This document shows positions 2,444-42,399 of a stretch of 64,000 nt of DNA, in pieces. Source of the DNA: a virus (taxonomy: Duplodnaviria; Caudoviricetes). The notes beneath the pieces are model-generated. The model saw nothing but the letters and a program-made list of their open reading frames with translations, was not told the DNA's origin and ran no database searches. Position numbers and translations under genes: made by a program. How positions within the stretch are numbered: position 1 is the stretch's first letter; every line of letters starts with the position of its first letter. Location of the stretch: positions 184,192-248,191 of IMG/VR virus record IMGVR_UViG_3300032307_000764. One strand, 5' to 3'.

Positions 2444-2480
2444 AATCATTTTTTTCTTTAAGTAGAATTTTCTATATTTG
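2444..2480 (+). promoter_or_regulatory. Bipartite early promoter
   Basis: AATC at 2444, TATATTTG at 2473. Confidence 0.8.
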
Positions 2481-2507
2481 TAATGTTAATCAATTAAACA
2501 AAAACAA

Positions 2508-2645
2508 ATGGCAGAAAAAATCGTTTTAAGAGCATTTCAAGTTTGGTCAGCAACTTTAGGTTTGACAGTAGTATTTGGGATTGGTTTTGCAATCTATAGT
2601 TTAATCGTTGGTAACTATACCAGCACCGCAAGTTTTGAGTTTTAG
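2508..2645 (+). CDS. 45-aa single-TM membrane peptide (not in ORF track)
   Basis: MAEKIVLRAFQVWSATLGLTVVFGIGFAIYSLIVGNYTSTASFEF*; sits between promoter and terminator. Confidence 0.7.
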   Translation: MAEKIVLRAFQVWSATLGLTVVFGIGFAIYSLIVGNYTSTASFEF

Positions 2646-2667
2646 TTTTGTTTGTTTTGTTTTGGTT

Positions 2668-2696
2668 AAAGAGGAACTTCGGTTCCTCTTTTTTTG
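2668..2696 (+). terminator. Intrinsic terminator (UUCG loop)
   Basis: AAAGAGGAAC-TTCG-GTTCCTCTTT plus T-tract. Confidence 0.85.
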
Positions 2697-2809
2697 TGGG
2701 CTAACTTTTTCCTCCCTGCAGGGTAGGAATCTGGAGGAACCCCCGAACCCCGATTCTAGAATCATTTTTTTCTCCAGATTATAATGATTACATTGTAAGA
2801 AAAATAATA

Positions 2810-3094
2810 ATGGCCGATTGCTATAACTGTAAGTACAGAGGAGAAATTCCGGGGAGTGCACACTCATGCTGTGAAATCACAAAACATGTTCCTGCATTAA
2901 GTAAGGTTAAATCAGAATTTCTAGATATAGCTCTTATGATAGGGAAAGCTAAAATAAAAGGTAGCGATGGTACCAATGCAGTTAAACTAAATCCTGAAGG
3001 TGTTAAAAACGGATGGGCTAGTTGGCCTCTAGACTTTGACCCAGTCTGGATAACATCCTGTGAATTATTCAAAGCCAAACCCAAACGTAAATAG
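2810..3094 (+). CDS. Cys-rich hypothetical protein
   Basis: CxxC...CC...C pattern. Confidence 0.8.
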   Translation: MADCYNCKYRGEIPGSAHSCCEITKHVPALSKVKSEFLDIALMIGKAKIKGSDGTNAVKLNPEGVKNGWASWPLDFDPVWITSCELFKAKPKRK

Positions 3095-3095
3095 G

Positions 3096-3132
3096 AATCA
3101 TTTTTTTCTTTGTAGAAAATTCTATATATTTG
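3096..3132 (+). promoter_or_regulatory. Bipartite early promoter
   Basis: AATC at 3096, TATATTTG at 3125. Confidence 0.8.
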
Positions 3133-3156
3133 GTATAACCAATTAAACAAAAGGAC

Positions 3157-3387
3157 ATGCCAACTACAGACACTTTTTATGTTTCCTCTAAGGACAACAA
3201 AGTAAGAAGAACCACAGAGCCCGGAAGAGAGTACTTCATCAAAGGAGGAAAGAAAGAAGGACAAGCTAAATACTTAATCGAAGTATTTGGATACGGCCAC
3301 GAAGAAGTAGCTAAAGAAGTTAGGGACATGGTTGATAAAGGAGGAATGGACCAAAAATTATTTAGGATCAGAGTAGAGACCAGATAA
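3157..3387 (+). CDS. Hypothetical basic protein
   Basis: ORF after promoter. Confidence 0.75.
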   Translation: MPTTDTFYVSSKDNKVRRTTEPGREYFIKGGKKEGQAKYLIEVFGYGHEEVAKEVRDMVDKGGMDQKLFRIRVETR

Positions 3388-3543
3388 AGATATACAAGAA
3401 TGGAGAAAGCCTAGAGATAGGTACTTGCTAAAGTGATTAAACCTCGCTTGTATGAAATCCCAAGTTAACTCTTGGGATTTTTTGTGTGCTAAGGTTTTGT
3501 GTTAGCACATGCTATAAGCACCCGGGGTTCCCCAGGGGAGGGG

Positions 3544-6197: not shown

Positions 6198-6297
6198 AGT
6201 CAGGTGGTGTAATTGGTAACACGGGGTTCGAGTCCCCAATCTTCTCGAAGGGAAGATAAAGGCTGGCAAGATACAGGTTCGAGCCCTGTCCTGACTA
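6198..6297 (+). tRNA. Atypical tRNA-like RNA (possible CGA anticodon, very long extra arm)
   Basis: Acceptor AGTCAGG/CCTGACT, D-arm GTGT/ACAC with GG loop, T-arm ACAGG-TTCGAGC-CCTGT; 100 nt; 4-bp GGGG/CCCC arm. Confidence 0.55.
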
Positions 6298-39007: not shown

Positions 39008-39634
39008 TTATTTTTTAATCCATTGGTAGTAACCTTCCATTACTCCATTATCGTGTCTTTCAAATAGCCCAGACCTGTAAACTGCTTCCACGTTATGCAG
39101 ATTCGATCCCTGATCTTTACCTTTTTCGTCATACACCTTCCATGTATAGTAATGGTGAATGTTTGGCCTAATTGTGAGGTCATCTACTAGTTTATTCTGA
39201 AACCATGACCACCCTTTTTCTGAGTTCTCTAATGCACGTTTCTCTCCTTCCAATTGAAATCCCTTGTGCATTTCTACCGAGTGCTCATAAGATTCTTTAG
39301 CATCCTTTAGACTGTTCTCTTCCCTTTCTTTTCTTTGAGATTCAGAATATCCCAGACTAAATTTGAATTTAGAAACGACCTCTTCCCAAGTGGGAATATT
39401 GTAAGTGCTGATCATGTCAGATACGTAGTCCCATCTGTCTATGCAGTGGATATCAACTTTATTTCCTTCGGTGCTGTAAACCCAGTTACCTTCTTCATCT
39501 AGGTAACTATAAGGTCCGTCCCAATATCCTGCTTTTAATTCTGCAAATCTTGGAATACCCCCCTCCATTCTGATGTGTGCTTCTCCTGAAGGGTCTGCTT
39601 CTTGGAGCATCTTAATAAATTCACTTGTTTTCAT
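39008..39634 (-). CDS. Hypothetical protein; start overlaps the end of the PTH2-like gene
   Basis: 208-aa ORF. Confidence 0.8.
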   Translation of the reverse strand: MKTSEFIKMLQEADPSGEAHIRMEGGIPRFAELKAGYWDGPYSYLDEEGNWVYSTEGNKVDIHCIDRWDYVSDMISTYNIPTWEEVVSKFKFSLGYSESQRKEREENSLKDAKESYEHSVEMHKGFQLEGEKRALENSEKGWSWFQNKLVDDLTIRPNIHHYYTWKVYDEKGKDQGSNLHNVEAVYRSGLFERHDNGVMEGYYQWIKK

Positions 39635-39992
39635 AACTTTCTTTTTTTATTTGATTTTTAGGATTACATAGGGACAAATGAGAAAGGCCCTTACGGATAT
39701 CTGGCGATCCATAAAGGCACAATGATGTATACTCGTCTACGTCTGGCTCGAAAAACAACGATGCCTCTGTTAGACGAGAATATTTCTCATAAAGCTTTAA
39801 TAAATGTTCTTGTGATTTTGCGGAAAGACAAATTATAGAGTTTGACTCTTCTTTCCATTTTTTAAAGACCTCAGGATGCTCGTAAGCGAAGTCTGCAATT
39901 GAATGTGTGGATTGCACCACTTGATAACCTGGGTTGATGTCTTGTCTGGTTATAATGACAAGCTTCGGTTGTTGGAATTTAATCTATTTCAT
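39621..39992 (-). CDS. PTH2-family peptidyl-tRNA hydrolase-like protein with in-frame TAG at codon 3 (ATG AAA TAG ATT...)
   Basis: MK*IKFQQPKLVIITRQDINPGYQVVQSTHSIADF...WKEESNSIICL...FFEPDVDEYTSLCLYG; the track start (GTG 39920) cuts off the conserved first strand. Confidence 0.72.
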
Positions 39993-40015
39993 GGTATCTT
40001 GTTTTTAATTCTACA

Positions 40016-40023
40016 CAAATGTA
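40016..40023 (-). promoter_or_regulatory. TACATTTG (-7 element) upstream of ATG 39992
   Basis: TAnnTTTG followed by a 23-nt A-rich leader. Confidence 0.65.
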
Positions 40024-40080
40024 ATAAAAAGTTTCTAAAGTTTATCGAAAATTCTAAATTTTTTCAAAAAATATTTTACA

Positions 40081-40419
40081 CTATATTTTTAAATTCTTAT
40101 TTCTTTCTCTTTTATATTTTTCTAGAGCATCAGTACACTCCTTGTATTTCTTTATCCTTCTCTCCTCGTTCTCGTCGATAAGCTTTGGATTTTTTTTCAA
40201 TCTTTTTGCCGATTCCACTGCATCCTCAAATTTTTCGAAAAGGTGTGGCTGATGTTGATCAAAAAACTCTACTGATAGTGTCCATGTGTAATCGTATCTT
40301 TTCCACCGATTAAACAAGTTAAATTTCTTTTTTTCCCTATAGTATATGACATAGTGAGTCTTTCTCTCGCTAAAAGGCTCTACTATAATCTCTACTTCTT
40401 TACCCTCGTATTTTTTCAT
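40081..40419 (-). CDS. Hypothetical basic protein
   Basis: 112-aa ORF. Confidence 0.75.
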   Translation of the reverse strand: MKKYEGKEVEIIVEPFSERKTHYVIYYREKKKFNLFNRWKRYDYTWTLSVEFFDQHQPHLFEKFEDAVESAKRLKKNPKLIDENEERRIKKYKECTDALEKYKRERNKNLKI

Positions 40420-40554
40420 TCTCTTATTTATAATCCTCCGTATTTTTTAAAGTCCTCGTTGTAATCGTCCCATCTTCTCTTGAACCAATTAACTATTGAT
40501 TCTCCTATTTTTTCTACTACTTTCATATTATTAAGATTTTAATTCTATTTTATA

Positions 40555-41415
40555 TTACATAATTGGAGATTGGTTGTCAGGTGTACATGGCATTAAAAAA
40601 CGTAGATATCCTTTTTCTTGAGAGAATATAGGAGTCTCTAGATCAGCTTCCCATTTACTTCTTTTGTAAGATTCAATTACGCGAGTCTTTCCGTCCATGA
40701 TAGGCTCGCTCTTTTTAGGATACACATGTTCAACTTTTCGAATAAGACTACCTCTCTTTTCTCTTGGGCTATAGTCATTCCAGTTGATTCCCTTTTGAAA
40801 AATCATCTCCTGCATCTCGTCAGTCTTCTTACCATGCAATTCTTTTTGTGAATATAGACTTTGAGCAACAGAAGAAATTGAATTTCTAGTAGCATCTTGC
40901 TGTCTCCAGATAAAGTAGTTAATCACCTCTTCTTGATAAGGGATCTGAAATACACGAGCGTCAAACATTGCAAGTTTGAAGATTTCAATTTCCGTTTCTG
41001 AAATGTAACATTCATCTCTAAACTTTGGTTCAATACCAGAATTTCTAGCAAATCTTGCCATTCTCAATTGATTAAACTTTGCAGTTGCCAATGAAGCAGC
41101 GATACTCGCCATTTTCTGCAAGTTACAGTCAAACCAAGCATGAGTTGAGATGTCATCGTAATCAGTGATGAGAATTGAAATCTCATCTGATTGAACGTAT
41201 CCAAATTTTGCTCCTTGGATATTCTGACATAAGTACTCGGTTGTTTTGTTCATGTCTTCCATTAACCCGACATCGAATGGACGATTAAGTCCTTTGGTGT
41301 AAGTGTGGAATGCTTTTCCGTCAATACGGATGATCGTGTTGGTGCGACGTACCAACTTGTGTCGTGTTCGGTCTTCGTAGAAGTCCTTCATTCTGTCGCC
41401 TAGCGAATCTTTCAT
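40555..41415 (-). CDS. thg1: tRNA(His) guanylyltransferase Thg1-like protein (3'-5' polymerase)
   Basis: LGDRMK...IIRIDGKAFHTYT...YVQSDEISIL...QKMASIAASLAT...FDARVF...YFIWRQQDATRNSIS. Confidence 0.93.
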   Translation of the reverse strand: MKDSLGDRMKDFYEDRTRHKLVRRTNTIIRIDGKAFHTYTKGLNRPFDVGLMEDMNKTTEYLCQNIQGAKFGYVQSDEISILITDYDDISTHAWFDCNLQKMASIAASLATAKFNQLRMARFARNSGIEPKFRDECYISETEIEIFKLAMFDARVFQIPYQEEVINYFIWRQQDATRNSISSVAQSLYSQKELHGKKTDEMQEMIFQKGINWNDYSPREKRGSLIRKVEHVYPKKSEPIMDGKTRVIESYKRSKWEADLETPIFSQEKGYLRFLMPCTPDNQSPIM

Positions 41416-41420
41416 TTATT

Positions 41421-41921
41421 TTAATTTTCAATTACAATTTCCTCAACCTCCTCAAATATGAAATCATCATAATCTAAACCTAACCACTTAAATCTTCCTT
41501 CGTGGTTTAGATAATGATTGAATACTTTTATCATGTCATCCACCTGTGGCATGATCTCAAGAAGATTAGATGACTTGCTCTCTAATACGAATGTGAGTGG
41601 TTCTGGTCCCGTATCACTAATGTAAGTTGTAATTTTCCAATCTCCTCCATATTGCCAATAACGCCTATCGATGCAAGATTGAATGAATCTCAATGCTGAC
41701 AGGTTGTGACACTTGAAAAAGATAAGATATGGTTTGTAATTGTGGCCACAGCACGATTCATTTGTTTCAATCCCTTTAATTGAATTAAGAGTGTCACACA
41801 GGTCAACACATTCGGCGTCCATCCATCCTCTATCCTGATTGTCTTTACCCATTTGGCTTAAGATCTCGCTATTACTAAGAACCTTGTCGCCGTAATCTAC
41901 TTTGTTGTTTAATCTTTTCAT
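41421..41921 (-). CDS. Hypothetical protein, weak resemblance to the TYW3-like N-terminal motif
   Basis: D..CVDLCDTLNSIKGIETNESCCGH. Confidence 0.45.
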   Translation of the reverse strand: MKRLNNKVDYGDKVLSNSEILSQMGKDNQDRGWMDAECVDLCDTLNSIKGIETNESCCGHNYKPYLIFFKCHNLSALRFIQSCIDRRYWQYGGDWKITTYISDTGPEPLTFVLESKSSNLLEIMPQVDDMIKVFNHYLNHEGRFKWLGLDYDDFIFEEVEEIVIEN

Positions 41922-41935
41922 TCTTTATTATTTAG

Positions 41936-42018
41936 AAGTCAGGACAGGATTCGAACCTGTATTGGCTCCATCCTTAACGGATGGGTTCGGATCCCACACC
42001 TCTTTACGCCACCTGACT
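41936..42018 (-). tRNA. Atypical tRNA-like RNA (ambiguous anticodon, CCG or TTA reading)
   Basis: Acceptor AGTCAGG/CCTGACT, T-arm ACAGG-TTCGAAT-CCTGT; weak D-arm. Confidence 0.55.
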
Positions 42019-42027
42019 ATATTAATA

Positions 42028-42252
42028 CTAGTTTTCCTGTTTTGATAAACGCTCTAATAACTCTTCAGCTTCCTTGATTACTTTAGAAGTATTGTCTAGC
42101 ATTTCAGAAATTCTTTTATCCTCCCCTTTATATTTAGTAAAAAGAAGAGCTCCAATAACTTCTAAATCACAACCCATTAATCCGCCTTCTTTTAATTTTT
42201 GAGCTATTTCGTCTGCCTCTCTCTTTAGTCCTTCTAGTCTATAATTTTCCAT
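42028..42252 (-). CDS. Hypothetical protein between the two tRNA-like genes
   Basis: 74-aa ORF. Confidence 0.7.
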   Translation of the reverse strand: MENYRLEGLKREADEIAQKLKEGGLMGCDLEVIGALLFTKYKGEDKRISEMLDNTSKVIKEAEELLERLSKQEN

Positions 42253-42265
42253 TTTTAATTTTTTG

Positions 42266-42346
42266 TGGTCTTAGCAGGATTCGAACCCGATGTAATCCGT
42301 TTTAGAGGCGGACCTACCTAGCCATGGTAGTTTAAACTCTAAGACC
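42266..42346 (-). tRNA. Putative amber suppressor tRNA (anticodon CUA) with non-canonical D-region
   Basis: Acceptor GGTCTTA(G)/(C)TAAGACC, anticodon arm TCCGC-CTCTAAA-ACGGA, T-loop TTCGAAT, discriminator A. Confidence 0.62.
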
Positions 42347-42362
42347 TTTTTAATTTATAATC

Positions 42363-42399
42363 CAAATCTATAGATAATACTAAAAATAAAAAAATGATT
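42363..42399 (-). promoter_or_regulatory. Bipartite early promoter directly upstream of the CUA tRNA
   Basis: Minus strand AATCATTTTTT from 42399 and TAGATTTG from 42370 (29-nt spacing). Confidence 0.8.

Follow-up and report, generated by a model that had tools for sequence, protein, structure and literature searches.

The window analysed here, i.e. the whole 64-kb stretch of DNA, is the final part of a 248-kb jumbo-phage record from IMG/VR (freshwater; 34% G + C; CheckV completeness 85%). On its minus strand it contains an 81-nt gene for a tRNA of non-canonical build with the anticodon CUA and, 2.3 kb downstream on the same strand, a PTH2-like gene that opens ATG AAA TAG ATT. The features of the locus are as follows.

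42363..42370, minus strand: TAnnTTTG (-7-like) promoter box, TAGATTTG (from the sequence; promoter function inferred)
42266..42346, minus strand, reading 42346..42266: non-canonical tRNA(CUA) gene, 81 nt (sequence, minimum-free-energy fold, Rfam tRNA score, covariation in 19 homologs)
42346..42339 paired with 42274..42267, minus strand: acceptor stem of tRNA(CUA), 8 bp, GGUCUUAG/CUAAGACC
42338..42331, minus strand: connector of tRNA(CUA), 8 nt, AGUUUAAA (sequence)
42330..42314, minus strand: D hairpin CUACC-AUGGCUA-GGUAG, with a 5-bp stem and a 7-nt loop containing GG
42312..42296, minus strand: anticodon arm UCCGC-CUCUAAA-ACGGA, with the anticodon CUA at 42305..42303
42295..42290, minus strand: variable loop, 6 nt (sequence)
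42289..42275, minus strand: T arm CGGG-UUCGAAU-CCUG, with a 4-bp stem
42266, minus strand: discriminator A (sequence)
41936..42018, minus strand: second tRNA-like RNA, of an 'AGUCAGG...CCUGACU' family, labelled Arg-CCG by ARAGORN; it belongs to the same gene string and has the same orientation
40555..41415, minus strand: Thg1-like gene between tRNA(CUA) and the PTH2-like gene, given for context only (Pfam Thg1, E = 1.8e-27)
40016..40023, minus strand: TACATTTG box upstream of the PTH2-like gene, probably its own promoter (sequence; function inferred)
39621..39992, minus strand: PTH2-like gene with TAG as third codon (ATG 39992..39990; TAG 39986..39984; stop codon 39623..39621)

The gene string behind the tRNA (39008-42346, minus strand) comprises a 74-aa ORF, the tRNA-like RNA, a 166-aa ORF with a weak match to TYW3, the Thg1-like gene, two small ORFs and PTH2. 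In related jumbo phages, a Thg1-like gene is often the neighbour of a tRNA array. Boxes of the form TAnnTTTG are the promoter type of Bacteroidota. The TAGATTTG box ends 16 nt before the 5' end of tRNA(CUA); a first-pass annotation of the locus had located the box but placed its end 17 nt upstream, and the 'early' timing that it gave to the promoter is without evidence. The box is retained as TACGTTTG in a homologous contig (L003), and the annotated canonical tRNA-Sup of the cultured Tenacibaculum phage pT24 (NC_049383) is preceded by a TAnnTTTG box at the identical 16-nt spacing.

The 8/4 cloverleaf listed above is exactly the minimum-free-energy fold of the RNA (-24.9 kcal/mol, z = -2.2). 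A single G separates the D hairpin from the anticodon arm, a C.A mismatch adjoins the anticodon loop, and the connector between acceptor stem and D hairpin has 8 nt, compared with 2 nt in ordinary tRNAs. ARAGORN made no call at this locus or at 11 homologous loci; on the whole 248-kb record it made two calls only, a tmRNA and the 'Arg-CCG' element. The tmRNA lies outside the window (490 nt; G000:C1:136909-137398, G000 being the whole record) and has a tag ending in LAA. The Rfam tRNA model (RF00005) gave tRNA(CUA) 26.6 bits, which is below its gathering score of 29, and handled the D region as a 24-nt insert; at gathering thresholds, Rfam had no match anywhere in the window. When 5-8 connector bases were removed in silico, ARAGORN reported tRNA(cta), so the connector alone accounts for the missed call.

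A near-identical copy of the gene (79 of 81 bases the same, with an acceptor U-A pair changed to U.G) is present in another phage contig with diverged flanks. Exact-pattern scans for the D hairpin found just one near-identical relative, and the locus had no match among GenBank phages at the DNA level. A covariance model was built from the two near-identical copies and used, without any constraint on the anticodon, to search beside PTH2-like genes in other contigs; every diverged homolog recovered in this way had CUA. More homologs were obtained by pattern scans of viral and metagenome contigs, which did demand a CUA loop. The family was aligned with covariance models; a MAFFT alignment mis-registered the 5' part.

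In the alignment of 19 distinct homologs, 96.2% of the pair cells are paired, and double (both-side) changes occur at 18 of the 22 pairs, with a covariation score of 0.894 versus at most 0.17 for controls with slid partners. The 8-bp acceptor stem is paired in 99.3% of its cells, and seven of its eight pairs covary. Its eighth pair (column 8 with column 75) forms in all 19 homologs (GC 11, GU 6, AU 2), whereas the 49:65 pair required by a 7/5 layout is present in only two of them, which supports the 8/4 reading. The family fails the criterion of canonical 7/5 stems with a 2-nt connector (U8, N9); its connector has 6-9 nt and a near-invariant UUAA core. All 19 homologs have a variable loop of 5-6 nt, the T loop TTCRA and the 7-nt anticodon loop YUCUAAA with U33 and A37, the anticodon always being CUA. 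GG (G18G19) is found in every D loop, a possible sixth anticodon-stem pair (26:44) forms in 17 of the 19, and the discriminator is mostly A. The first bases of the connector may pair with the variable loop, as 3 nt of complementarity is present in 15 of 17 combinations, but this is suggestive only, because 48% of mismatched combinations also have it (a weak control).

Each genome searched has one copy of the family, which scores 83-91 bits, with canonical tRNAs at no more than 37 bits. Ten pattern matches were found in representative prokaryote genomes, none of which scored as a member of the family. A search for the parent isoacceptor, in which the family was compared with the 33 canonical tRNAs of a complete 373-kb relative (G010) and with the suppressor of another genome (G007), turned up no clear relative. 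The tRNA(CUA) gene is real and conserved.

The cloverleaf that the first-pass annotation had drawn from the sequence alone (CTCTAAA loop, TTCGAAT T-loop, CTACC/GGTAG hairpin and long connector) was confirmed by the sequence and the minimum-free-energy fold, and the 8/4 layout, which it had mentioned as a possible drawing, is settled by the eighth acceptor pair. The suggestion that standard finders may miss the gene held for ARAGORN and for the Rfam threshold, and the homologs gave strong covariation and CUA in 19 of 19. Two likenesses held in part: that to tRNA-Pyl for the loop sequence only, and that to allo-tRNAs for the 8/4 branch, not for the short variable loop and the long connector.

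Allo-tRNAs have an acceptor branch that is split 8/4 or 9/3; the (8/4) tRNAs described so far are of the Ser or His type or, having a long variable arm, resemble tRNASec (Mukai et al., Nucleic Acids Res 2016/17, PMC5389517). They share with the present family a 12-bp acceptor branch that is split 8/4 and not 7/5 and an occurrence in phages and bacteria, and some of them are candidate nonsense suppressors; the CUA family differs from them in its variable loop of 5-6 nt, its UUAA connector of 6-9 nt and its 5-bp D hairpin. The CUA anticodon, with the loop sequence alone, is shared with tRNA-Pyl, the extended acceptor stem with tRNA-Sec, and the possible sixth anticodon-stem pair is a further likeness. 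In tRNA-Pyl, the connector has 1 nt, the variable loop 3 nt and the small D loop no G18G19 (PMC7609411), unlike the window tRNA with its 8-nt connector, 6-nt variable loop and GG; the UCA anticodon, long variable arm and 6-bp D stem of tRNA-Sec are absent here. The same review of non-canonical tRNAs, published in 2020, mentions no tRNA with a long acceptor-D connector.

Relatives with the anticodon CCA were found by an anticodon-free pattern scan together with a further model (R2). They have the same build with discriminator G, are 79-83 nt long and lie unannotated within the tRNA arrays of other phages. The 8-bp acceptor stem, UUAA connector, D hairpin, 4-bp T stem and C.A mismatch by the loop are common to both forms. 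In Escherichia phage HY02 (Felixounavirus) and its relatives, the CCA element occupies the unannotated gap between tRNA-Arg and tRNA-Ser (L238:3675-3754 in HY02); it was missed by ARAGORN, and its best Rfam score was 23 bits, to tRNA-Sec. CCA elements also occur in ten further contigs (L226, L244, L259, L283, L272, L229, L246, L274, L224, L285). Since the CCA form sits in tRNA arrays, the build is employed at sites where one would expect a tRNA with an ordinary decoding role. Within the PTH2-linked family, CUA remains invariant despite this sister group. Because U8 is replaced and the core rearranged in this build, its fit to EF-Tu and the ribosome is an inference that rests only on conservation and on these CCA-anticodon tRNAs in coliphage arrays.

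The PTH2-like gene downstream scored 25.3 bits with Pfam PTH2 (PF01981; cut-off 23; profile positions 2-71), a value that is reached only if the residues after the TAG are included. The first ATG, GTG or TTG after the start region is a GTG inside the conserved first strand of the domain. The profile of the family aligns to solved Pth2 chains in the PDB from residue 2 (E = 6.5e-5); a structure model was mediocre (pLDDT 67), and its top Foldseek matches were Pth2/Bit1, with weak support (E = 0.02).

The early TAG is kept in all 26 distinct homologs of the gene, down to 30% identity. Each of them opens with ATG, 2-7 codons, TAG (at codons 2-8) and a purine (22 A, 4 G); in 21 of the 22 genes with A, the post-TAG codon is ATT or ATA, and in the remaining five of the 26 it is AAC, GTT or GTA. 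A tRNA-CUA lies near the gene on the same strand in 23 of the 26 cases, mostly 100-300 nt upstream, and the other three lie on fragments that offer little flanking sequence. Both tRNA(CUA) and the PTH2-like gene are absent from two related jumbo phages of 92-100% completeness. Database proteins show a Q at the amber site; this was rejected as evidence for glutamine because gene callers had simply translated TAG as Q. Contigs of one wetland RNA library span the 5' end of PTH2 including the TAG, with one mismatch per 151 nt, which is weak evidence as DNA carry-over is possible. The one RNA-library run used (X20) had zero cover over the tRNA itself; this is uninformative, as only contigs were available and small structured RNAs are usually lost.

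These starts permit another explanation, in which the ATG-N-TAG mini-ORF terminates, PTH2 synthesis begins at the adjacent AUU or AUA through reinitiation or coupling, and tRNA-CUA is linked to the gene for some other purpose. It is favoured by the near-cognate ATT or ATA that follows the TAG in 21 of the 26 genes, and by Mycobacterium phage Myrna, where the Shine-Dalgarno spacing suits a GTG start directly after the TAG. However, the five homologs with AAC, GTT or GTA have no start-like codon before the conserved strand, and reinitiation explains neither the near-universal neighbouring tRNA with a CUA anticodon nor the constant in-frame ATG 2-7 codons upstream with no stop in between. We regard this explanation as very unlikely, and read-through of the TAG remains the preferred reading.

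The Myrna gene (NC_011273, L212; 1977-2533) encodes the PTH2-like protein gp84 and is set among tRNAs, of which gene 86 is annotated as tRNA-Ser and has the loop UUCUAAA, i.e. the anticodon CUA. The start region of gp84 reads GGAGG-C-GTG-TAG-GTG, with a spacing that favours the post-TAG GTG, so the TAG is perhaps not read there.

An HD-domain gene (~190 aa) that also has an early TAG follows PTH2 directly in at least 10 contigs (e.g. L003:7775-8350 and L031:4762-5346). The best matches of its product, which are weak, are to the HD region of CCA-adding and A-adding enzymes (PDB 3WFP-3WFS, TIGR02692). No HD homolog was found in the window's own genome, although the PTH2 gene is present. In the complete 373-kb relative, credible early TAGs occur only in the PTH2 and HD genes, and the 33 canonical tRNAs form an array located elsewhere in the genome. 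In phage pT24 (L211, about 2455-3409), PTH2 and HD are fused as a single ORF that opens ATG AAA TAG ATA; in the record, the ORF is annotated from a later start, so that the ATG-AAA-TAG leader is left out. Here and in other phages, the same amber-bearing genes are accompanied by canonical tRNA-CUA genes.

The PTH2 and HD leaders of one phage can be near-identical, e.g. MKEQFT*VT and MKEEFT*VT. In five contigs (L068, L191, L052, L003, L037), the leaders around the TAG are alike within a phage and different between phages. The sequence around the amber codon seems to be evolving as a cassette.

The leaders could also mean that it is the residue and not regulation that matters, the tRNA supplying a particular, maybe unusual amino acid needed near the N-terminus of the enzyme. 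The TAG keeps a fixed position with respect to the Ile or Val that comes next, the two leaders of one phage are near-identical, and the odd shape of the tRNA could suit a dedicated charging enzyme. Against this, the leader that holds the amber codon is short, variable in length, poorly conserved and outside the PTH2 fold, the surroundings of the module showed no gene for a release factor or a synthetase-like protein, no RF-1-domain gene (the release-factor variant that had been considered) was found in the whole record, and a canonical tRNA-CUA serves the same genes in other phages. A need for a special residue is therefore very unlikely to be the explanation.

Neither does a non-decoding role fit well. 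The element could be a tRNA-like RNA that tRNA-directed nucleases of the host, or the Thg1-like, PTH2 and HD enzymes encoded nearby, would take as a decoy or substrate, a notion favoured by its non-canonical core, by a neighbourhood rich in tRNA-handling genes and by the adjacent tRNA-like family with variable cores, some copies of which clearly lack an anticodon loop. The invariant 7-nt loop with U33, CUA and A37, the G18G19, the T loop and the matching TAG codons in neighbouring genes are hard to explain without decoding, and we again rate this alternative as very improbable. A decoding tRNA that reads the early TAG is thus preferred.

The phage genome is not recoded, and TAG remains an ordinary stop. 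Reading TAG as sense brings no gain in ORF coverage over most of the record, long ORFs are intact, and TAG is the terminal stop of 35 of the 263 called genes (13%), without any sign of TAG avoidance or of an excess of back-up stops. ORF pairs joined by TAG have their own starts a few codons past it. Cases of ATG, 1-6 codons, TAG and an ORF number 22, versus 31 with TAA and 17 with TGA, and are not enriched; none of the amber targets in this genome other than PTH2 was convincing. A rival view, in which the phage is partly code-15 recoded with many TAG-bearing genes and the tRNA is a general decoder, draws on the fact that public gene callers rendered TAG as Q in many homologous short contigs. 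It is all but excluded by the unchanged ORF coverage, by the 35 genes that end in TAG and by the restriction of credible in-frame TAGs to PTH2 (plus HD in the 373-kb relative).

Two TAG stops outside the window (G000:C1:111916 and 123062) have the ATG of the next gene in frame four codons on, with a ATATATAC-like motif ahead of that ATG; read-through would fuse the neighbouring proteins, and the arrangement was not distinguished from chance.

We consider it likely that the element is transcribed and encodes an elongator tRNA of non-canonical structure with the anticodon CUA and, jointly with this, that it is a dedicated translational gate on the PTH2-like gene, whose read-through is its sole evident job in this phage. 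The analysis establishes the structure of the tRNA and its conservation, a CUA that never varies, early TAGs retained in the target genes, the genetic linkage of these genes to the tRNA and a genome otherwise free of recoding; expression, processing, charging, suppression and regulation are inferred. In the proposed mechanism, the ribosome would start at the ATG and reach the UAG within the first 2-8 codons, where either RF1 would terminate translation or the phage tRNA(CUA) would read through; in relatives, the tRNA would also decode the early UAG of the HD gene. The output of enzymes predicted to clean tRNA 3' ends (PTH2, HD) would thus be set by the amount and the working state of the phage suppressor.

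The amber codon, which one base change would remove, is kept across very diverged homologs together with the linked tRNA, which argues that the stop is under selection, and this in turn suggests that the arrangement serves to make expression conditional or graded. Candidate variables for sensing are tRNA gene dosage over time, the charging or integrity of the tRNA, and RF1 activity; by inference, the most likely sort of regulation is a timer or dose gate, or else sensing of tRNA-pool state. Some points speak against a gate: efficient suppression would be costly to a phage with 13% of its own genes ending in TAG, and the ATT or ATA after the TAG in most homologs possibly permits reinitiation at a near-cognate start. 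As to the first-pass annotation, its rejection of global code-15 recoding held on ORF coverage and terminal TAGs, its inference of a dedicated suppressor is supported by the comparative data (expression, charging and suppression being inferred), and the search for ATG-N-TAG genes that it had suggested pointed to PTH2 in the genome of the window and HD in relatives.

The residue inserted at the amber codon can only be guessed at; glutamine or tryptophan are the leading possibilities, an inference based on the nearest structural relatives being CCA (Trp-type) tRNAs. The two anticodons differ by one transition. The amber suppressor su+7 of E. coli was derived from tRNA-Trp by a change of CCA to CUA; it is a laboratory mutant with a canonical 7/5 structure and accepts glutamine as well as tryptophan. 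The parallel lies in the nearest relatives of the CUA family, which have the loop CUCCAAA (versus CUCUAAA) and the same 31:39 mismatch; their discriminator is G, whereas that of the CUA family is mostly A.

Stop-recoded phages that use code 15 (TAG = Gln), in which suppression has been proposed as a switch for a subset of genes (bioRxiv 10.1101/2021.08.26.457843, PMC7886860, PMC10879173), likewise encode a tRNA-CUA and have a standard-code host. They have many TAGs in late and structural genes, unlike the present case, in which a single TAG within the first 8 codons is found in one or two small genes for tRNA-end processing and the suppressor tRNA is non-canonical. Autoregulation of prfB (RF2) is based on a +1 frameshift at an early in-frame UGA, which senses RF2 itself. 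By analogy, an early in-frame stop would here also tie output to termination versus alternative decoding, with the differences that read-through would need a separately encoded tRNA and that the gated products would be tRNA hydrolases. Full-text literature searches yielded no report of a suppressor tRNA that is paired with PTH2 or HD genes carrying an amber codon.

If the gate is confirmed, the phage would recode one codon in one or two genes by means of a private tRNA while TAG is still an ordinary stop, i.e. a tRNA would exert gene-specific control without a genome-wide change of code. A bolder reading would see a new structural class of decoding tRNA (8/4, with a UUAA connector that perhaps pairs with the variable loop), represented by a hidden tRNA(CCA) in FelixO1-like coliphages and by a CUA 'key' whose only role is to make PTH2 and HD production depend on the condition of the tRNA pool or of the termination machinery. 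We lean slightly against this reading in full; if true, it would describe a translational sensor circuit in the conflict of phage and host over tRNAs. As the build is missed by current finders, phage tRNA inventories are incomplete, including those of the much-studied FelixO1-like coliphages. An unusual natural suppressor with its leader context is of practical interest for the expansion of the genetic code, and the cultured phage pT24 with its Tenacibaculum host and the phages of E. coli make both parts directly testable.

The second tRNA-like RNA of the gene string (41936..42018) has, as far as shown, no part in the suppressor mechanism. Another copy of this AGUCAGG/CCUGACU family lies elsewhere in the window (6198-6297, plus strand), and further members occur in other contigs (at least 9 copies in L027; also L028, L006:12284-12355 and L029:3077-3147), frequently adjoining tRNA-CUA. 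The acceptor and T arm are constant and the cores hypervariable, with lengths of 65-121 nt, and some copies have a GNRA-type tetraloop at the position of the anticodon loop. In a freshwater metagenome (run X4), the constant 3' part of the family is covered to a very high depth (bin depth 18,566).
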